A DNA stretch of 64,000 bases from Escherichia coli (lineage in GTDB: Bacteria > Pseudomonadota > Gammaproteobacteria > Enterobacterales > Enterobacteriaceae): NCBI RefSeq assembly GCF_050920415.1, contig NZ_CP169309.1; one strand, 5' to 3'. The notes under the pieces were generated by a model. The model saw only the letters and a program-made list of their open reading frames with translations. It made no database searches and was not told the origin of the DNA. Below, one piece after another: positions 47,871 through 62,131 of this stretch; the first letter of the stretch is position 1, and each line of letters starts with the position of its first letter. The translations under genes and the position numbers were made by a program.

Positions 47871-47910
47871 CTAACGCCAGACACCACGCGATGTTTAAAG
47901 TATAGTTTGA

Positions 47911-50232
<2,322 letters not shown>

Positions 50233-50387
50233 TGCGCAAACGATGCGAGGCGGATCGAAAAATTCAATATTCATCACACTTTTCATGAAAATTCTGTAAC
50301 CGTTTTCACGCGCTATCTGCTAAAAATGTTGCCGATGTGAAGTAAACATGGAAGTAGTACGCCTGCCGTGCCGGGCGAGGAGTGAGT

Positions 50388-51413
50388 GTGAAAGCGAAGA
50401 AGCAGGAAACTGCCGCGACCATGAAAGACGTTGCCCTGAAGGCAAAAGTCTCTACAGCGACCGTCTCCCGAGCATTAATGAATCCCGATAAAGTCTCCCA
50501 GGCCACCCGTAATCGGGTTGAAAAAGCGGCCCGGGAAGTAGGTTATTTGCCGCAGCCTATGGGGCGCAACGTCAAACGTAATGAATCCCGCACCATTCTG
50601 GTGATTGTCCCGGATATCTGCGATCCCTTCTTTAGCGAAATTATTCGCGGTATCGAAGTTACGGCGGCAAATCACGGATATCTGGTGCTGATTGGCGACT
50701 GTGCGCATCAAAATCAGCAGGAAAAAACCTTTATCGATTTGATTATCACCAAGCAAATTGATGGCATGTTGCTGCTGGGTTCAAGGCTGCCGTTTGATGC
50801 CAGCATTGAGGAACAGCGTAATCTGCCGCCGATGGTGATGGCGAACGAATTTGCGCCGGAACTGGAGCTGCCTACAGTTCATATCGACAATCTGACCGCG
50901 GCATTTGATGCAGTAAATTATTTATATGAGCAAGGTCATAAACGGATTGGCTGTATAGCCGGTCCCGAAGAGATGCCGCTGTGTCACTACCGCCTGCAAG
51001 GCTACGTTCAGGCGCTGCGTCGCTGCGGCATTATGGTTGATCCGCAATACATCGCCCGGGGCGACTTCTCCTTTGAAGCCGGAAGCAACGCGATGCAACA
51101 GCTGCTTGCTCTTCCGCAACCGCCTACTGCTGTCTTCTGCCATAGCGATGTAATGGCGCTCGGCGCACTTTCTCAGGCAAAACGCCAGGGGCTGAAAGTC
51201 CCGGATGATCTATCCATAATCGGTTTTGATAACATCGACCTGACGCAATTTTGTGATCCGCCGCTGACAACCATCGCGCAGCCGCGTTACGAAATCGGTC
51301 GGGAAGCTATGCTGTTATTGCTTGATCAAATGCAGGGGCAACACGTTGGCAGTGGCTCTCGTTTAATGGACTGCGAACTTATCATCCGGGGATCAACACG
51401 CGCGTTACCTTAA
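50388..51413 (+). CDS. cytR: LacI-family repressor CytR (nucleoside catabolism/transport regulon)
   Basis: MKAKKQETAATMKDVALKAKVSTATVSRALMNPDKVS...; GTG start inferred from the conserved N-terminus. Confidence 0.93.
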   Translation: MKAKKQETAATMKDVALKAKVSTATVSRALMNPDKVSQATRNRVEKAAREVGYLPQPMGRNVKRNESRTILVIVPDICDPFFSEIIRGIEVTAANHGYLVLIGDCAHQNQQEKTFIDLIITKQIDGMLLLGSRLPFDASIEEQRNLPPMVMANEFAPELELPTVHIDNLTAAFDAVNYLYEQGHKRIGCIAGPEEMPLCHYRLQGYVQALRRCGIMVDPQYIARGDFSFEAGSNAMQQLLALPQPPTAVFCHSDVMALGALSQAKRQGLKVPDDLSIIGFDNIDLTQFCDPPLTTIAQPRYEIGREAMLLLLDQMQGQHVGSGSRLMDCELIIRGSTRALP

Positions 51414-51504
51414 AGTAAACCTTTAAGACTGCCGTGACTGGTCAAAGGCCCGCCGCTTAAGTAACATGGCGGGCTGACGAACGAATAAATACAGCGAAAC
51501 GATA

Positions 51505-52452
51505 GTGGCACAACGAGATTATGTACGCCGCAGCCAACCGGCACCTTCGCGGCGAAAAAAAAGCACCTCACGGAAAAAGCAACGAAATCTGCCTGCGGTT
51601 TCTCCCGCAATGGTCGCTATTGCTGCCGCCGTTCTTGTGACCTTTATCGGTGGTCTGTACTTCATTACGCATCACAAGAAAGAAGAGTCCGAGACGCTGC
51701 AAAGCCAGAAAGTGACCGGAAACGGATTACCACCGAAACCAGAAGAACGCTGGCGCTACATTAAAGAGCTGGAAAGTCGCCAGCCGGGTGTGCGTGCACC
51801 AACAGAACCTTCTGCCGGTGGTGAAGTGAAAACGCCGGAACAACTGACACCAGAACAACGTCAGCTTCTTGAACAAATGCAGGCTGATATGCGCCAGCAA
51901 CCAACGCAACTGGTTGAAGTCCCATGGAATGAACAGACGCCGGAACAGCGTCAGCAAACGCTTCAACGTCAGGCACAACAGCGTCAGATTCAGGCGGCTC
52001 AACAGCAGCAGCGTCAGGCTGAGCAGGCATATCAACAACCGCGTACCGCGCAAGCGCAGCAACCACCGCGCCAGACGCAGCAGACTCGCCAGGCGGCTCA
52101 GCAGCCGTACCAGGATCTCCTGCAAACGCCAGCACACACTGCCGCGGCGCAGCCGAAGTCACAGCAAGTCGCGCCTGTTAGCCGGGCCGCTGACGCGCCA
52201 AAACCGACGGCGGAGAAAAAAGACGAACGCCGCTGGATGGTGCAGTGCGGTTCGTTCAGAGGCGCGGAACAGGCAGAGACGGTACGTGCTCAGCTGGCGT
52301 TTGAAGGCTTTGACTCGAAGATCACCACCAACAATGGCTGGAATCGTGTGGTCATTGGCCCGGTGAAAGGCAAAGAGAACGCAGACAGCACCCTCAATCG
52401 CTTGAAGATGGCGGGTCATACAAACTGTATTCGACTCGCTACCGGGGGTTGA
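51505..52452 (+). CDS. ftsN: Cell division protein FtsN
   Basis: GTG start; MAQRDYVRRSQPAPSRRKK, one TM segment, Q-rich linker, C-terminal SPOR domain (..RWMVQCGSFRGAEQAETVRAQLAFEGF..). Confidence 0.93.
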   Translation: MAQRDYVRRSQPAPSRRKKSTSRKKQRNLPAVSPAMVAIAAAVLVTFIGGLYFITHHKKEESETLQSQKVTGNGLPPKPEERWRYIKELESRQPGVRAPTEPSAGGEVKTPEQLTPEQRQLLEQMQADMRQQPTQLVEVPWNEQTPEQRQQTLQRQAQQRQIQAAQQQQRQAEQAYQQPRTAQAQQPPRQTQQTRQAAQQPYQDLLQTPAHTAAAQPKSQQVAPVSRAADAPKPTAEKKDERRWMVQCGSFRGAEQAETVRAQLAFEGFDSKITTNNGWNRVVIGPVKGKENADSTLNRLKMAGHTNCIRLATGG

Positions 52453-52476
52453 AACCCTCAAAATCCCCCCCATCTA
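52448..52476 (+). promoter_or_regulatory. sigma-32 (heat shock) promoter of hslVU
   Basis: -35-like gttgaaa and -10-like ccccatcta with about 13 nt spacing, matching the sigma-32 consensus CTTGAAA / CCCCATNTA. Confidence 0.7.
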
Positions 52477-52489
52477 TAATTGCATTATG

Positions 52490-52513
52490 CCCCGTACTTT
52501 TGTACGGGGTTTG
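52490..52513 (+). terminator. Stem-loop with T-run in the ftsN-hslV intergenic region / hslV leader
   Basis: ccccgtac tttt gtacgggg ttt. Confidence 0.55.
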
Positions 52514-52544
52514 TACTCTGTATTCGTAACCAAGGGGTCAGCTC

Positions 52545-53075
52545 GTGACAACTATAGTAAGCGTACGCCGTAACGGCCATGTGGTCATCGCTGGTGATGG
52601 TCAGGCCACGTTGGGCAATACCGTAATGAAAGGTAACGTGAAAAAGGTCCGCCGTCTGTACAACGACAAAGTCATCGCGGGCTTTGCGGGCGGTACTGCG
52701 GATGCTTTTACGCTGTTCGAACTGTTTGAACGTAAACTGGAAATGCATCAGGGCCATCTGGTCAAAGCCGCCGTTGAGCTGGCAAAAGACTGGCGTACCG
52801 ATCGCATGTTACGCAAACTTGAAGCACTGCTGGCAGTCGCGGATGAAACTGCATCGCTTATCATCACCGGTAACGGTGACGTGGTGCAGCCAGAAAACGA
52901 TCTTATTGCTATCGGCTCCGGCGGCCCTTACGCCCAGGCTGCGGCGCGCGCGCTGTTAGAAAACACTGAATTGAGTGCTCGTGAAATTGCTGAAAAGGCG
53001 TTGGATATTGCAGGCGACATTTGCATCTATACCAACCATTTCCACACCATCGAAGAATTAAGCTACAAAGCGTAA
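52545..53075 (+). CDS. hslV: ATP-dependent protease subunit HslV
   Basis: 176 aa, [39 protein letters not shown]... Confidence 0.97.
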
Positions 53076-53084
53076 GGATCTCCC

Positions 53085-54416
53085 ATGTCTGAAATGACCC
53101 CACGCGAAATCGTCAGCGAACTGGATAAACACATCATCGGCCAGGATAACGCCAAGCGTTCCGTGGCGATTGCACTGCGTAACCGCTGGCGTCGCATGCA
53201 GCTTAACGAAGAGCTGCGCCATGAAGTGACCCCGAAAAATATCCTGATGATCGGCCCGACCGGTGTCGGTAAAACTGAAATCGCTCGTCGTCTGGCTAAG
53301 CTGGCGAATGCGCCGTTCATCAAAGTTGAAGCGACCAAATTCACCGAAGTGGGCTATGTAGGTAAGGAAGTGGATTCTATTATCCGCGATCTGACCGATG
53401 CCGCCGTGAAAATGGTACGCGTCCAGGCTATTGAGAAAAACCGGTATCGCGCTGAAGAACTGGCAGAAGAACGTATTCTCGACGTGCTGATCCCACCGGC
53501 TAAAAACAACTGGGGACAGACCGAACAACAGCAGGAACCGTCCGCTGCTCGTCAGGCATTCCGCAAAAAACTGCGTGAAGGCCAGCTCGATGACAAAGAA
53601 ATCGAGATCGATCTTGCCGCAGCACCGATGGGCGTTGAAATTATGGCGCCTCCGGGAATGGAAGAGATGACCAGCCAGCTGCAGTCCATGTTCCAGAACC
53701 TGGGTGGTCAGAAACAAAAAGCGCGTAAGCTGAAAATCAAAGACGCCATGAAGCTGCTGATTGAAGAAGAAGCGGCGAAACTGGTGAATCCGGAAGAGCT
53801 GAAGCAAGACGCTATCGACGCCGTTGAACAGCACGGGATCGTATTTATCGACGAAATCGACAAAATCTGTAAGCGCGGCGAGTCTTCCGGTCCGGATGTT
53901 TCTCGTGAAGGCGTTCAGCGTGACCTGCTGCCGCTGGTAGAAGGTTGCACCGTTTCCACCAAACACGGGATGGTCAAAACTGACCACATTCTGTTTATCG
54001 CTTCTGGCGCGTTCCAGATTGCGAAACCGTCTGACCTGATCCCGGAACTGCAAGGTCGTCTGCCAATCCGCGTTGAACTGCAGGCACTGACCACCAGCGA
54101 CTTCGAGCGTATTCTGACCGAACCGAATGCCTCTATCACCGTGCAGTACAAAGCATTGATGGCGACTGAAGGCGTAAATATCGAGTTCACCGACTCCGGT
54201 ATTAAGCGGATCGCGGAAGCAGCATGGCAGGTGAACGAATCTACCGAAAACATCGGTGCTCGTCGTTTACATACTGTTCTGGAGCGTTTAATGGAAGAGA
54301 TTTCCTACGACGCCAGCGATTTAAGCGGTCAAACCATCACTATTGACGCAGATTATGTGAGCAAACATCTGGATGCGTTGGTGGCAGATGAAGATCTGAG
54401 CCGTTTTATCCTATAA
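53085..54416 (+). CDS. hslU: ATP-dependent protease ATPase subunit HslU
   Basis: 443 aa, [37 protein letters not shown]..; Walker A GPTGVGKT. Confidence 0.97.
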
Positions 54417-54445
54417 TCGCGTTCAATCATTTTCATCATTGTTTG

Positions 54446-54470
54446 ATGGGGCTGAAAGGCCCCATTTTTA
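54446..54470 (+). terminator. hslU intrinsic terminator
   Basis: atggggc tgaaag gccccat tttt. Confidence 0.6.
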
Positions 54471-54482
54471 TTGGCGCGTATT

Positions 54483-55409
54483 ATGACTGAACAACAAATT
54501 AGCCGAACTCAGGCGTGGCTGGAAAGTTTACGACCTAAAACCCTCCCCCTCGCCTTTGCTGCAATTATCGTCGGGACGGCGCTGGCATGGTGGCAAGGTC
54601 ACTTCGATCCGCTGGTCGCCCTGCTGGCACTGATTACCGCCGGACTGCTTCAAATTCTCTCTAACCTCGCTAATGATTACGGCGATGCAGTAAAAGGCAG
54701 CGATAAACCTGACCGCATTGGCCCGCTACGTGGCATGCAAAAAGGGGTCATTACCCAGCAAGAGATGAAACGGGCGCTCATTATTACCGTCGTGCTCATC
54801 TGTCTCTCCGGGCTGGCACTGGTTGCAGTGGCGTGCCATACGCTGGCCGATTTTGTCGGTTTCCTGATTCTTGGCGGGTTGTCGATCATTGCCGCTATCA
54901 CCTACACCGTGGGCAATCGTCCTTATGGTTATATCGGTTTGGGTGATATTTCCGTACTGGTTTTCTTTGGCTGGTTAAGCGTCATGGGCAGCTGGTATTT
55001 ACAGGCTCATACGTTGATTCCGGCGTTGATCCTTCCGGCGACCGCATGCGGCCTGCTGGCAACGGCAGTACTGAACATTAATAACCTGCGTGATATCAAT
55101 AGCGACCGCGAAAATGGCAAAAACACGCTGGTAGTGCGCTTAGGTGAAGTGAACGCGCGTCGTTATCATGCCTGCCTGCTGATGGGCTCTCTGGTGTGTC
55201 TGGCGCTGTTTAATCTCTTTTCACTGCATAGCCTGTGGGGCTGGCTGTTCCTGCTGGCGGCACCATTACTGGTGAAGCAAGCCCGTTATGTGATGCGGGA
55301 AATGGACCCGGTGGCGATGCGACCGATGCTGGAACGCACTGTCAAGGGAGCGTTACTGACTAACGTGCTGTTTGTTTTAGGGATATTCCTAAGCCAGTGG
55401 GCAGCATAA
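54483..55409 (+). CDS. menA: 1,4-dihydroxy-2-naphthoate octaprenyltransferase
   Basis: Conserved start MTEQQISRTQAWLESLRPKTLPLAF (308 aa); UbiA prenyltransferase family membrane protein. Confidence 0.94.
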   Translation: MTEQQISRTQAWLESLRPKTLPLAFAAIIVGTALAWWQGHFDPLVALLALITAGLLQILSNLANDYGDAVKGSDKPDRIGPLRGMQKGVITQQEMKRALIITVVLICLSGLALVAVACHTLADFVGFLILGGLSIIAAITYTVGNRPYGYIGLGDISVLVFFGWLSVMGSWYLQAHTLIPALILPATACGLLATAVLNINNLRDINSDRENGKNTLVVRLGEVNARRYHACLLMGSLVCLALFNLFSLHSLWGWLFLLAAPLLVKQARYVMREMDPVAMRPMLERTVKGALLTNVLFVLGIFLSQWAA

Positions 55410-55501
55410 CTGACAAATATCAATTAACAATTGATGATTTTGCCAACAGCCCACATAGCGCGATATACTGAAAATTCTCGCAGCAACTGAATGTTAAGCC
55501 T

Positions 55502-55987
55502 ATGAAATACGATACTTCCGAGCTTTGTGACATCTATCAAGAAGATGTTAACGTCGTGGAACCGCTGTTCTCCAACTTTGGCGGACGGGCGTCGTTTGGC
55601 GGACAAATAATCACGGTAAAATGTTTCGAGGACAACGGGTTGCTGTACGATCTGCTCGAACAGAATGGCCGTGGTCGTGTTCTCGTCGTTGACGGCGGTG
55701 GTTCTGTTCGTCGCGCACTGGTCGATGCTGAGCTGGCGCGTCTGGCAGTACAAAATGAATGGGAAGGCCTGGTCATTTACGGCGCGGTGCGTCAGGTAGA
55801 TGACCTGGAAGAGCTGGATATCGGCATCCAGGCGATGGCAGCAATTCCAGTCGGTGCCGCTGGCGAAGGCATTGGCGAAAGCGATGTCCGCGTTAATTTT
55901 GGCGGCGTCACCTTCTTCTCCGGTGACCATCTTTATGCCGACAATACCGGAATTATTCTTTCAGAAGATCCGCTGGATATTGAATAA
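55502..55987 (+). CDS. rraA: RNase E inhibitor RraA
   Basis: 161 aa, [56 protein letters not shown]... Confidence 0.95.
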
Positions 55988-56003
55988 GTACCTGCCATGC
56001 GTT

Positions 56004-56030
56004 AAAAGGGGAATTAAATTCCCCTTTTTT
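56004..56030. terminator. Intrinsic terminator after rraA
   Basis: aaaagggg aattaaatt cccctttttt. Confidence 0.7.
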
Positions 56031-56245
56031 ATATGCAAAATATTCATAAAGACTATCGTTTGTTTTTATTTAATTCATTTTAAATATCAATAGTTCACAT
56101 CTGACAATATAAATTAATTATCGATAAATCATTTCATAAAAATATGCAGCATTAAAAATTAATGCTATATGGTAAATTAACTATTCTGGGAATAGGGATA
56201 TGAATCATCGTTAGTAGCGAACGTATTAAATAATAATGGATTGAT

Positions 56246-56524
56246 ATGAAATACGTTATCTTATTAATACTATGGATAATAACTACTTTTCTTAGTCATC
56301 TTCAGCACAGCAACCTACTGTCTGGAGATCCTGGCATGGTTGGCGAGTATATCGGTTCAGTATTTCTGGGGCCGTTGTTACTTCCCGTGCTTGTGTCAGG
56401 TATTCTGTGCGTATTTATTAAAAAAAAACGTAACTTCGCCAGTTTTACTCGCGGGTGCTGTTGGGTATTGGGAATCCTGCTTTTATCCAAAGTCGGCAAT
56501 ACGTTTCGTATGTTTACCCCGTGA
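56246..56524 (+). CDS. Hypothetical small membrane protein (92 aa, 2-3 predicted TM helices)
   Basis: ORF MKYVILLILWIITTFLSHL.. in a very AT-rich insertion between rraA and zapB. No homolog recognised, so the coding status is unverified. Confidence 0.45.
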   Translation: MKYVILLILWIITTFLSHLQHSNLLSGDPGMVGEYIGSVFLGPLLLPVLVSGILCVFIKKKRNFASFTRGCCWVLGILLLSKVGNTFRMFTP

Positions 56525-56554
56525 CAATATACCTTTGAGAATGCTGCGATAACC

Positions 56555-56962
56555 GTGACTATCCCGAACCGACACTGGAATACGGTTTCCATTAGTACTA
56601 ATAAAACCATTGATATAAGAAGTGAGGATAATAGCGTCTTCATTTCTGCTTTCCGCCTGCCCGCAGGACGTAGCGCCGATGACCCGCTGGAAGCGTTAAA
56701 GAAGAAGCAGCGAGACAATCTCAAGGATCAATACAATGAGGAAGCCTTCCAGTTTCATGATTGTAATGCCAAACATTTCACCTGTAAGTATCAGGATGTG
56801 TTGATAAATTTTGATGGTCAGCAGAAAAGAACCATCAGTGTTTATCTTGAAGACACCCCTAGGGCTGTGGGGATCATTGCATTAATGGCGCCAGATACGG
56901 CAGATAAATATCGCCAACAGGCGATGGAGATTATGCTTTCCGCTAAAAATGCAGTGAAGTAA
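56555..56962 (+). CDS. Hypothetical soluble protein (135 aa)
   Basis: ORF directly downstream of the 92 aa ORF with a probable GTG start. No family recognised by eye. Confidence 0.45.
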   Translation: MTIPNRHWNTVSISTNKTIDIRSEDNSVFISAFRLPAGRSADDPLEALKKKQRDNLKDQYNEEAFQFHDCNAKHFTCKYQDVLINFDGQQKRTISVYLEDTPRAVGIIALMAPDTADKYRQQAMEIMLSAKNAVK

Positions 56963-57000
56963 AAAATAAGGCGCCTTGCGGCGCCTCTGCGTGGAAGAGA

Positions 57001-57294
<294 letters not shown>

Positions 57295-57379
57295 TTACCG
57301 GTGACGCCTTAATAAATACGAGCGCACTTTAGTTAGCTCCGATTGTATGAAGCCGCGCCATCGCTGTCCAGCGGCACGC

Positions 57380-57670
57380 CTTGCAGATTACGGTTTGCCA
57401 CACTTTTCATCCTTCTCCTGGAGACATAATCCACGCAAATCGAAAATGTTAATAAATTTGTTGCACGAATGATCTAACAAACATGCATCATGTACAATCA
57501 GATGGAATAAATGGCGCGATAACGCTCATTTTATGACGAAGCACACACATTTTAAGTTCGATATTTCTCGTTTTTGCTCGTTAACGATAAGTTTACAGCA
57601 TGCCTACAAGCATCGTGGAGGTCCGTGACTTTCACGCATACAACAAACATTAACTCTTCAGGATCCGATT
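57380..57670 (+). promoter_or_regulatory. glpFK promoter/operator region (CRP and GlpR sites expected)
   Basis: Intergenic region upstream of glpF with GlpR-operator-like repeats (ttcgatatttctcg, ctcgttaacgataag) and a CRP-like region. Established knowledge: glpFKX is controlled by GlpR and CRP. Individual sites were not delimited. Confidence 0.5.
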
Positions 57671-60047
<2,377 letters not shown>

Positions 60048-60083
60048 TATCAGGCATCTGAACCAATTGCCTGATACTGATCG

Positions 60084-60170
60084 CCTGATGCGACGCTTAC
60101 GCGTCTTATCAGGCCTACGAGCCGATGCCATTTTGTGTAGGCCGGATAAGGCGTTCACGCCGCATCCGGC
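60084..60170. repeat. BIME/REP cluster between glpK and glpX
   Basis: gcctgatgcgacgcttacgcgtcttatcaggcctac and gtaggccggataaggcgttcacgccgcatccggc, classic REP palindromes. Confidence 0.75.
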
Positions 60171-60277
60171 ATGTCGTAGACTCTGAAATCGTGCGGGGGC
60201 AACCCCCGCACACATCAATAATCCCGCCCTTCCCCTGTGCTACACTTCGCGCCATTCCTTACTGCTTAGAGTTTGCT

Positions 60278-61288
60278 ATGAGACGAGAACTTGCCATCGA
60301 ATTTTCCCGCGTCACCGAATCTGCGGCGCTGGCTGGCTACAAATGGTTAGGACGCGGCGATAAAAACACCGCGGACGGCGCGGCGGTTAACGCCATGCGT
60401 ATTATGCTCAACCAGGTCAACATTGACGGCACCATCGTCATTGGTGAAGGTGAAATCGACGAAGCACCGATGCTCTACATTGGTGAAAAAGTCGGTACCG
60501 GTCGCGGTGATGCGGTAGATATTGCTGTTGATCCGATTGAAGGCACGCGCATGACGGCGATGGGCCAGGCTAACGCGCTGGCGGTGCTGGCAGTAGGCGA
60601 TAAAGGCTGCTTCCTCAACGCGCCAGATATGTATATGGAGAAGCTGATCGTCGGACCGGGAGCCAAAGGCACCATTGATCTGAACCTGCCGCTGGCGGAT
60701 AACCTGCGCAATGTTGCGGCGGCGCTCGGCAAACCGTTGAGCGAACTGACGGTAACGATTCTGGCAAAACCGCGCCACGATGCCGTTATCGCAGAAATGC
60801 AGCAACTCGGCGTGCGCGTATTTGCTATTCCGGATGGCGATGTGGCAGCCTCAATTCTCACCTGTATGCCAGACAGCGAAGTTGACGTGCTGTACGGTAT
60901 TGGTGGCGCGCCGGAAGGCGTGGTTTCTGCGGCGGTGATCCGCGCATTAGATGGCGACATGAATGGTCGTCTGCTGGCACGTCATGACGTCAAAGGCGAC
61001 AACGAAGAAAATCGCCGCATTGGCGAGCAGGAGCTGGCGCGCTGCAAAGCGATGGGCATCGAAGCGGGTAAAGTGTTGCGTCTGGGCGATATGGCGCGCA
61101 GCGACAACGTCATCTTTTCTGCCACTGGCATCACCAAAGGTGATCTGCTGGAAGGTATTAGCCGCAAAGGCAATATCGCCACCACCGAAACACTGCTGAT
61201 CCGCGGTAAATCACGCACCATTCGTCGCATTCAATCCATCCACTATCTGGATCGTAAAGACCCGGAAATGCAGGTGCACATTCTCTGA
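60278..61288 (+). CDS. glpX: Fructose-1,6-bisphosphatase class II
   Basis: Conserved start MRRELAIEFSRVTESAALAGYKWLGRGDKNTADGAAV (336 aa). Confidence 0.96.
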   Translation: MRRELAIEFSRVTESAALAGYKWLGRGDKNTADGAAVNAMRIMLNQVNIDGTIVIGEGEIDEAPMLYIGEKVGTGRGDAVDIAVDPIEGTRMTAMGQANALAVLAVGDKGCFLNAPDMYMEKLIVGPGAKGTIDLNLPLADNLRNVAAALGKPLSELTVTILAKPRHDAVIAEMQQLGVRVFAIPDGDVAASILTCMPDSEVDVLYGIGGAPEGVVSAAVIRALDGDMNGRLLARHDVKGDNEENRRIGEQELARCKAMGIEAGKVLRLGDMARSDNVIFSATGITKGDLLEGISRKGNIATTETLLIRGKSRTIRRIQSIHYLDRKDPEMQVHIL

Positions 61289-61308
61289 GTGATTTGATCG
61301 ATTGAGCC

Positions 61309-61338
61309 TTCCAGTCCTTCGGGACTGGAATTTTTTTG
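61309..61338 (+). terminator. glpX intrinsic terminator
   Basis: ccagtcc ttcg ggactgg aattttttt. Confidence 0.7.
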
Positions 61339-61384
61339 TTCGGAGAACGAAGATAAGGCAAGTCAATCAAAACAGGAGAAAAAC

Positions 61385-62131
61385 ATGGCTGATTGGGTAA
61401 CAGGCAAAGTCACTAAAGTGCAGAACTGGACCGACGCCCTGTTTAGTCTCACCGTTCACGCTCCCGTGCTTCCATTTACTGCCGGGCAATTCACCAAACT
61501 AGGCCTTGAAATTGACGGCGAACGCGTCCAGCGTGCCTATTCCTACGTTAACTCTCCTGATAATCCCGATCTGGAGTTTTACCTGGTGACCGTGCCCGAT
61601 GGAAAATTAAGCCCACGATTAGCGGCACTGAAACCGGGCGATGAAGTACAGGTGGTTAGCGAAGCAGCTGGCTTCTTTGTGCTGGATGAGGTCCCTGACT
61701 GCGAAACACTGTGGATGCTGGCAACCGGTACAGCGATTGGCCCTTATTTATCAATTCTGCAACTGGGCAAAGATTTAGATCGCTTCAAAAATCTGGTTCT
61801 GGTTCACGCCGCACGTTATGCCGCCGACTTAAGTTATCTGCCACTGATGCAAGAACTGGAAAAACGCTACGAAGGGAAACTGCGCATTCAGACGGTGGTC
61901 AGTCGGGAAACGGCGGCGGGTTCGCTCACCGGGCGAATACCGGCGTTAATTGAAAGTGGTGAACTGGAAAGTGCGGTGGGCTTGCCGATGGATAAAGAAA
62001 CCAGCCATGTGATGCTGTGCGGCAATCCACAGATGGTTCGCGATACGCAACAGTTGCTAAAAGAAACCCGGCAGATGACGAAACATTTACGTCGTCGACC
62101 GGGCCATATGACAGCGGAGCATTACTGGTAA
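61385..62131 (+). CDS. fpr: Ferredoxin/flavodoxin-NADP+ reductase
   Basis: 248 aa, MADWVTGKVTKVQNWTDALFSLTVHAPVLPFTAGQFTKLGLEIDGERVQRAYSYVNSP... Confidence 0.95.
   Translation: MADWVTGKVTKVQNWTDALFSLTVHAPVLPFTAGQFTKLGLEIDGERVQRAYSYVNSPDNPDLEFYLVTVPDGKLSPRLAALKPGDEVQVVSEAAGFFVLDEVPDCETLWMLATGTAIGPYLSILQLGKDLDRFKNLVLVHAARYAADLSYLPLMQELEKRYEGKLRIQTVVSRETAAGSLTGRIPALIESGELESAVGLPMDKETSHVMLCGNPQMVRDTQQLLKETRQMTKHLRRRPGHMTAEHYW

Follow-up and report, generated by a model that had tools for sequence, protein, structure and literature searches.

The ftsN locus and the domains of its product

The window (the whole 64,000-nucleotide stretch of Escherichia coli DNA analysed here) contains an ftsN gene with cytR on its 5' side and hslV, followed by hslU, on its 3' side (Table 1), and this cytR-ftsN-hslV-hslU order is the standard enterobacterial neighbourhood. 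The gene product matched the NCBIfam model NF008179, "cell division protein FtsN", over its full length at 643.6 bits (E = 6e-194, curated cutoff 525), and scored 352.6 bits against TIGR02223 (cutoff 107.65). The DedD model gave 18.5 bits (E = 0.002), far under the DedD cutoff of 150. The solved FtsN SPOR domain (PDB 1UTA) matched the C-terminal 78 residues, 238-315, with E = 2.8e-47, and the SPOR family PF05036 is precomputed on all close homologues of the window protein; the PDB search returned no solved structure over the middle, or linker, of FtsN. A promoter and terminator scan of 51380-52560 returned nothing on the + strand.

The layout of E. coli FtsN comprises a cytoplasmic tail (residues 1-33), a transmembrane helix (34-53), three short helices including the essential segment L75-Q93, an unstructured Q-rich linker (129-225), and a SPOR domain (243-319) (PMC7939390). 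The window protein is identical to that of K-12 over residues 1-153, and this identity predicts the same bitopic topology, with a basic tail, a transmembrane helix at 34-53 and a periplasmic essential segment at L75-Q93. Judged by its sequence, the product is FtsN, with every sequence-testable defining feature of that protein present, and septal localisation and activation of FtsWI/PBP1b would be expected of it from orthology. The linker has been seen as a long flexible tether, with the SPOR domain probing denuded glycans and the essential domain engaging the synthase complex (bioRxiv 10.1101/2024.05.13.594014).

Table 1. Features of the ftsN locus, in window coordinates
Feature	Position	Strand	Remarks
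cytR	50382-51413		flanks ftsN on the 5' side
ftsN CDS	51505-52452	+	GTG start, 315 aa, TGA stop; NF008179 match; annotated ftsN in every matching E. coli record
FtsN residues 1-130	51505-51894	+	cytoplasmic tail, transmembrane helix, H1-H3, essential EFtsN region (residues 75-93); coli-type DNA
ORF of 136 aa	51727-52137	-	antisense to ftsN; ends differ in other alleles
ORF of 133 aa	51761-52162	-	antisense to ftsN; shortened to 88-112 aa in most alleles of the K-12 type and of other Escherichia
ORF of 165 aa	51869-52366	+	+2 frame
Q-rich low-complexity linker, residues about 129-221	51889-52167	+	equivalent to K-12 129-225; from composition, entropy and PMC7939390
E. fergusonii-type linker cassette, residues about 153-228	51963-52186	+	replaces the usual E. 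coli linker
Imperfect 24-nt tandem duplication	51972-52019	+	AQQRQIQA / AQQQQRQA; inside the cassette; Tandem Repeats Finder; repeat family D2
GCG (Ala) insertion	52144-52146	+	in GCC-GCG-GCG; absent from K-12 and from E. fergusonii
SPOR domain, residues about 239-315	52219-52449	+	PDB 1UTA match; mostly coli-type DNA
Second fergusonii-type patch	52428-52441	+	four sites; gives LATGG, not LAAGG; read as a probable remnant of a longer import
hslV	52545-53075		flanks ftsN on the 3' side
hslU	53085-54416		beyond hslV

Composition and repeat content of the linker

Sequence entropy, computed in 25-residue windows, is 2.1-2.5 bits at residues 151-195, as against 3.1-3.8 bits in residues 1-105 and the SPOR domain. 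Residues 116-235 consist of 32.5% Q, 15% A, 10.8% P, and 8.3% R, Q making up 37% of the cassette described below, so that the central Gln-rich unstructured region of FtsN is present in the window protein. The commonest codons in these residues are CAG (25), CAA (14), GCG (8), and CGT (6). A preliminary description of this DNA had quoted a Q/R-rich peptide, which is indeed found in the ftsN translation, and had described the segment as rich in CAG/CAA/CGT repeats. The richness in these codons was borne out, whereas the "repeats" proved to be a bias of codon composition accompanied by one weak two-copy tandem. That duplication (24 nt x 2.0 copies, 79% match, score 61) is the sole tandem repeat reported by Tandem Repeats Finder on the gene, and the remaining direct repeats in the linker are short and imperfect.

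A divergent linker cassette of the E. fergusonii type

Across 5,426 complete E. coli genomes, cytR and hslVU of the window have 97.3-97.9% identity to practically every one, whereas ftsN has only 80-90% identity to 5,113. Aligned with K-12, the linker cassette shows 64.7% identity and 18 gap columns, whereas with E. fergusonii it shows 96.4-97.3% identity and 3 gap columns. Its core, at about 51963-52100, has about 48% identity to K-12 and is unalignable with it, a blastn search of 51960-52105 against K-12 giving no match at word size 7; the tail of the cassette is about 80% identical to K-12, and its flanks 97-100%. The largest difference between the window and ordinary E. coli thus stems from replacement of a whole cassette and not from repeat slippage. 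Compensating frameshifts, which the open alternative frames of the gene might have suggested as the origin of the cassette, were rejected, since in no register does the core resemble K-12 DNA.

Outside the cassette, most of the gene is nearer to K-12 than to E. fergusonii: the 5' part (51505-51950) is 97.3% identical to K-12 versus 88.8% to E. fergusonii, and the middle of the SPOR region 98.4% versus 82.9%, with 98-99% identity to K-12 across 52194-52420. For cytR, the corresponding values are 97.9% and 77.3%. The final 32 bp of ftsN show the reverse, with 100% identity to E. fergusonii and 87.5% to K-12. The same alternation emerged site by site from the 159-161 positions that distinguish E. 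coli from E. fergusonii: as far as about 51947 the window is coli-type, and it is then fergusonii-type throughout the cassette, coli-type again from 52194 to about 52420, fergusonii-type in the second patch near the stop codon, and coli-type once more from 52495. At the informative sites of cytR, about 95% of states are coli-type, and over 14 kb (priA to fpr) the cassette is the only dense fergusonii-type run, accounting for 43 of 53 fixed differences in 52000-52249.

When searched for alone, the cassette was recovered from 18 of the 5,426 complete E. coli genomes (0.33%), always at 99.6% identity or more. The tract has properties expected of a mosaic allele: it is nearer to another species than its flanks are, it is discretely bounded, and its state is the usual one in the donor species but uncommon in the recipient. 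A literature search on ftsN with fergusonii returned no relevant paper and no description of a coli/fergusonii mosaic.

Related linkers in Escherichia and other genera

A scan of 80 species representatives, a set that excludes E. fergusonii, E. marmotae, and E. ruysiae, placed a K-12-type linker in all five Escherichia representatives (E. whittamii, E. albertii, E1V33, E. coli E69, and MOD1-EC7003). In a protein-database search with the cassette and SPOR region as query, the best match outside E. coli was FtsN of E. fergusonii. That first match (P0037; 304 aa, 89% identity) is a 30-nt deletion variant and not the canonical protein of the species. Canonical E. fergusonii FtsN with the cassette-type linker is represented on 214 and 207 contigs, and the window protein falls in the same 90% cluster as the canonical FtsN of E. 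fergusonii ATCC 35469 (B7LUS1; 314 aa, 214 contigs). The linker peptides of the window and B7LUS1 are identical save for one extra Ala in the window (AHTAAAQPK, versus AHTAAQPK in E. fergusonii), and the GCG insertion accounts for the length of 315 aa in the window versus 314 aa in E. fergusonii.

At the DNA level, where E. fergusonii was compared as two haplotype groups, the cassette differs from sampled E. fergusonii by 6-8 substitutions in 221 nt and a 3-nt indel. This residual divergence suggests either that the exact donor is unsampled or that the transfer was not very recent. Donors from other genera were also considered, since Citrobacter and others share peptide motifs with the cassette, and were rejected: the best DNA identity was about 70%, in C. 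amalonaticus. An import reaching as far as hslU was likewise set aside. The 5' part of hslU is 99.3% identical to one E. fergusonii contig versus 97.4% to K-12, but this was judged uninformative because another E. fergusonii contig is K-12-like there, the two species show few differences, and the window strain already lies about 2% away from most E. coli.

Proposed import, spread, and erosion of the tract

We compared nine carriers, four ordinary E. coli, and five E. fergusonii loci base by base. The cassette, its boundaries, and its internal exceptions are the same in all nine carriers, whose cytR genes lie 2-21 substitutions from that of the window, on differing backgrounds. Fergusonii-type sequence 3' of the cassette is nested among them: L095 has none, L093 and L094 have one or two sites, the window has the patch at its 3' end, and in L004 and L096-L099 the fergusonii-type stretch extends over 52323-52441. 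The simplest and most likely reading of this pattern is a single import event that was later eroded. A tract from about 51963 to about 52441 would have entered E. coli from an E. fergusonii lineage by one homologous recombination, before spreading to further E. coli backgrounds. The alignable SPOR part may then have been patched back progressively through recombination with ordinary alleles of the species, while the unalignable linker core could be transferred or lost only as a block.

We assume that the linker swap is functionally neutral. The same nested pattern could be read otherwise, in that the linker block stayed whole in at least several E. coli backgrounds while the SPOR DNA imported with it eroded, which might reflect selection on the tether and a fergusonii-type linker that is non-neutral in E. 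coli. We regard such selection as unlikely. If it were at work, the "spacer" would be a functional, exchangeable module, and its length, its charge, periplasmic partners, or an agent that targets the linker might be involved.

A history with no transfer at all would have both linker types ancestral and the second kept in E. coli at low frequency as an ancient trans-species polymorphism, through incomplete lineage sorting or balancing selection. With cores as unlike as theirs, the two cassettes must be old, and motifs of the second type (QRQAQQRQ, EQ.YQQP.RTAQ, and PRQTQQ) are common to Citrobacter and Salmonella linkers, which makes this type look the more ancestral. An allele kept since speciation should nonetheless match the divergence of its flanks, and the cassette is 96-97% identical to E. 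fergusonii where flanking ftsN is 83-89% and cytR 77% identical. The fergusonii-specific SPOR sites at 52323-52441 in L004 and L096-L099, together with the K-12-type linkers of E. albertii, E. whittamii, and the three other Escherichia representatives, also speak against shared ancestry, and we find this history quite improbable.

Import into E. coli has also to be weighed against transfer the other way, in which the second linker type originated in a minor lineage of E. coli, passed from it to E. fergusonii, and became fixed there. Divergence between the two species is uneven across this region, with 77% identity in cytR and about 98-99% in priA, hslU, and glpK. They evidently exchange DNA here, which weakens simple arguments about direction, and there are signs of exchange both ways, including hslU haplotypes common to both species and the near-identity (about 99%) of priA and glpK. 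Transfer from E. fergusonii to E. coli is favoured because the cassette is canonical in E. fergusonii, on the contigs counted above, and rare among E. coli genomes; because in E. fergusonii it lies within continuous species-specific ftsN sequence, as against its sharply bounded position in coli-type sequence in E. coli; and because some E. coli carriers hold fergusonii-specific SPOR sites along with it. On these comparative grounds a donation by E. coli seems very unlikely.

Length variation of the linker among strains

The preliminary description had also proposed that the linker might support in-frame length variation between strains, a proposal that identical length and sequence across strains would have contradicted. 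Alignment of the linker across strains revealed neither. In-frame variation is real, with genes of 885, 927, 948, 954, and 960 bp and deletions at short direct repeats, but it is rare. The K-12-type gene of 960 bp encodes 319 aa, and the window allele of 948 bp encodes 315 aa. The 954-bp gene (317 aa) has lost one QR, the 927-bp gene (308 aa) has lost 11 aa, and the 885-bp gene of E2348/69 (294 aa) has lost K-12 residues 131-155. A 940-bp gene, frameshifted through a deletion of 20 bp, stops after about residue 193, which takes away the SPOR domain.

Every ftsN deletion falls within the linker at 129-225, and each is placed at short direct repeats: two perfect CGCGTACG copies bracket the 33-bp deletion, the QRQR codons contain the 6-bp deletion, GCGCCAGC and GCGCCAAC flank the 75-bp deletion, and the 20-bp deletion is at CCGC. 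Junction-specific searches of the 5,426 complete E. coli genomes recovered the 33-bp deletion from 13, the 75-bp deletion from four, and the 6-bp deletion from one; at least 5,301 are undeleted at the QRQR site, as K-12 is. Similar changes affect the second linker type: an E. coli variant of 307 aa with the linker of the window (P0035) lacks 8 aa, corresponding to one 24-nt unit of the tandem duplication in Table 1, and the 304-aa variant of E. fergusonii lacks 30 nt between two CAGCAGCG repeats.

The 960-bp gene is kept in about 99% of the complete genomes, and for this reason we do not regard the variation as hypervariable. The linker is a tolerant spacer with occasional slippage and not a hypervariable locus. 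The in-frame length classes, five of them in E. coli and three of them in E. fergusonii, have their junctions in short direct repeats and are what a repeat-driven, contingency-like locus with frequent slippage under selection might produce, and yet Tandem Repeats Finder detected one weak two-copy repeat and no perfect short-unit array, each length variant occurs in 1 to about 15 genomes, and the 885-bp allele is confined to four genomes that are all E2348/69 derivatives. Such a locus is highly improbable here. Expansion of tandem repeats as the main source of variation was rejected on the same ground of a single weak two-copy repeat.

Alternative-frame open reading frames

Three alternative-frame ORFs overlap the linker on both strands, as had been described, and the earlier view of them as artefacts is upheld by their composition-expected lengths, their lack of conservation, synonymy confined to the ftsN frame, and the absence of family matches. 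In 2,000 codon-order shuffles, the stop-free runs of the five alternative frames were within expectation (P = 0.06-0.64), as they were in 2,000 synonymous resamplings of ftsN (P = 0.20-0.82), and the lengths of the alternative-frame ORFs do not exceed chance for this composition (P = 0.06-0.72). The linker is made up mostly of CAG, CAA, GCN, CCN, and CGN codons, which rarely give stops in other frames, and long alternative-frame ORFs follow as a by-product. Their boundaries differ in every species examined. At a threshold of 80 aa, the K-12, 927-bp, 954-bp, and E2348/69 alleles lack the 165-aa ORF, and the E2348/69 allele is without any alternative ORF of at least 80 aa.

Outside the cassette, 18 of the 19 substitutions that separate the window from K-12 are synonymous in the ftsN frame, whereas four, none, and two of the same 19 are synonymous in the frames of the 136-, 133-, and 165-aa ORFs, respectively. 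An NCBIfam search of the three gave no matches. The ORFs thus show neither conservation, nor excess length, nor purifying selection in their own frames of the kind that would mark an overlapping gene. That one or more of them is nevertheless a real overlapping gene is a negligible prospect: they are long (133-165 aa) and three lie over one 948-bp gene, but such lengths are what the composition predicts, the ORFs are unconserved between alleles or species, the substitutions suit the ftsN frame alone, no family matches were found, their starts are GTG or TTG, and nested ORFs that reach 130 aa or more are frequent in the window, where 16 host ORFs contain 24 of them, a 331-aa ORF antisense to hslU being one. 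Gene callers should leave out these three nested ORFs.

An account of the locus and its implications

Taken together, we consider it very likely that the segment is the disordered linker of FtsN, that the ORFs over it are artefacts, that length variants of it are rare, and that the window carries a fergusonii-type tract imported into an E. coli ftsN. From the role given in the literature, the periplasmic linker would join the membrane-proximal essential domain, which activates the synthase of septal peptidoglycan, to a C-terminal SPOR domain with affinity for denuded glycan strands. It may be constrained mainly in composition and approximate length and not in exact sequence. A linker tolerant in this way could now and then lose or duplicate segments in frame where short direct repeats occur, giving rise to the rare variants of 294, 307, 308, and 317 aa.

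Natural alleles tolerate the loss of 2-25 linker residues as well as complete replacement of the linker sequence, which is consistent with a flexible tether, and they offer ready-made variants (294-319 aa, in two unrelated sequences) for tests of how far FtsN depends on linker length or sequence. The gene is also a local hotspot of apparent divergence, at about 10% versus about 2% in its neighbours, and could mislead gene-based typing or phylogeny. The wider biological import is small: mosaic alleles between E. coli and a sister species are expected, and FtsN with its Q-rich disordered linker and SPOR domain is already well characterised, the allele itself being present in public databases as FtsN.

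Comparison with known systems

The window protein resembles K-12 FtsN (P29131) in gene, locus, and architecture, with a Q-rich unstructured linker of similar length and a SPOR domain that differs by a single amino acid (LATGG in the window, LAAGG in K-12). It differs from K-12 FtsN in that linker residues about 154-228 are another sequence and in being four residues shorter (315 versus 319). With E. fergusonii FtsN (B7LUS1_ESCF3) it shares the linker peptide, but for one Ala, and the terminal LATGG. Elsewhere the two part company, the window having S10, L29, KTPEQ, FRGAEQ, and GPVKGKENADS where E. fergusonii has G10, M29, INPDQ, FKGAEQ, and GPIKGKENADG, with DNA identity of 83-89% outside the cassette. 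DedD, DamX, and RlpA likewise carry a C-terminal SPOR domain after a low-complexity periplasmic linker; unlike DedD, the window protein is the FtsN equivalog, and its DedD score is far under the cutoff.

Interspecies homologous recombination in enterobacteria yields mosaic genes, and the coli/fergusonii mosaic described here is an ordinary product of that process which calls for no new mechanism. It has in common with other enterobacterial mosaic genes its sharp tract boundaries, an identity to the donor well above that seen in flanking DNA, a patchy layout of tracts, and carriers that show nested degrees of erosion. It differs from them in that no selective agent, such as an antibiotic or an immune system, is evident, and in that the part replaced is a disordered spacer and not an active site or a surface epitope.

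Strain background and divergence between species

The window strain is unusual among E. coli, judging from the genes flanking ftsN: in a set of 5,426 complete E. coli genomes, nearly every one differs from it by 2.1-2.7% in cytR and hslVU (50382-54416), with just 7 at 99% identity or above. E. coli MFDS1022581 (NZ_CP169399.1) is 100% identical to the window in all three genes, cytR, hslV and hslU. The 5' part of hslU (53085-53652), in both the window and L004, another E. coli carrier of the fergusonii-type linker cassette, matches the canonical E. fergusonii contig at 99.3-99.6% identity but K-12 at 97.4-97.7%, while the hslU of a further E. fergusonii contig (L088) is K-12-like. Two hslU haplotypes appear to be common to both species.

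Comparison of window positions 47900-62000 with E. fergusonii (L100/L101) revealed that divergence between the species is strongly uneven, with just 77% identity in cytR, about 20% fixed differences across ~57250-58500, and only ~1-2% differing sites in priA, in hslU and past position 58500. This pattern suggests either much past exchange between E. coli and E. fergusonii here or the replacement of genes in one of the species.

Features near ftsN

Across the 64-kb window, 24 ORFs with lengths of 130 aa or more sit inside longer ORFs, a count that represents the phantom-ORF background; a 331-aa example lies opposite hslU (see table). Directly 3' of ftsN, the window carries a hairpin, CCCCGTAC-TTTT-GTACGGGG, followed by TTTGT, whose E. 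fergusonii counterpart is CCCCGCAC-AATT-GTGCGGGG. The T>C and A>G changes between the two are compensatory and preserve the stem, and the hairpin looks like a terminator or attenuator. It was not reported by a simple promoter/terminator scan of 51380-52560.

Coordinates of features near ftsN and of variant ftsN alleles
Feature	Sequence	Coordinates	Strand	Context
331-aa ORF	window	53058-54053	-	antisense to hslU
Hairpin	window	52490-52509		ftsN-hslV intergenic region
294-aa FtsN allele	L006	1201-2085		EPEC E2348/69 lineage
Frameshifted ftsN	L007	1201-2140		E. coli HBUT-L; second strain H91 (strain hubt-sl)

Other FtsN variants

FtsN of the prototype EPEC strain E2348/69 lacks K-12 residues 131-155, a segment starting directly after helix H3, and among the 5,426 complete E. 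coli genomes the allele turned up solely in the four E2348/69-derived records. In HBUT-L and H91, ftsN has lost 20 bp at a CCGC microhomology, and the resulting stop after approximately residue 193 removes the whole SPOR domain and part of the linker; RefSeq labels the gene "frameshifted". Barring an assembly error common to these two related strains, this allele would be a viable SPOR-less FtsN. Finally, P0039, an FtsN from a Logan assembly of unknown species, has a more divergent N-terminal region and a linker that is hybrid in look, with a K-12-like first half (QRQRQVQQLADQQRLAQSSR...STWQQQ) and a second half resembling the fergusonii type (PPRQTQQTRQ), which may represent an intermediate or another mosaic.
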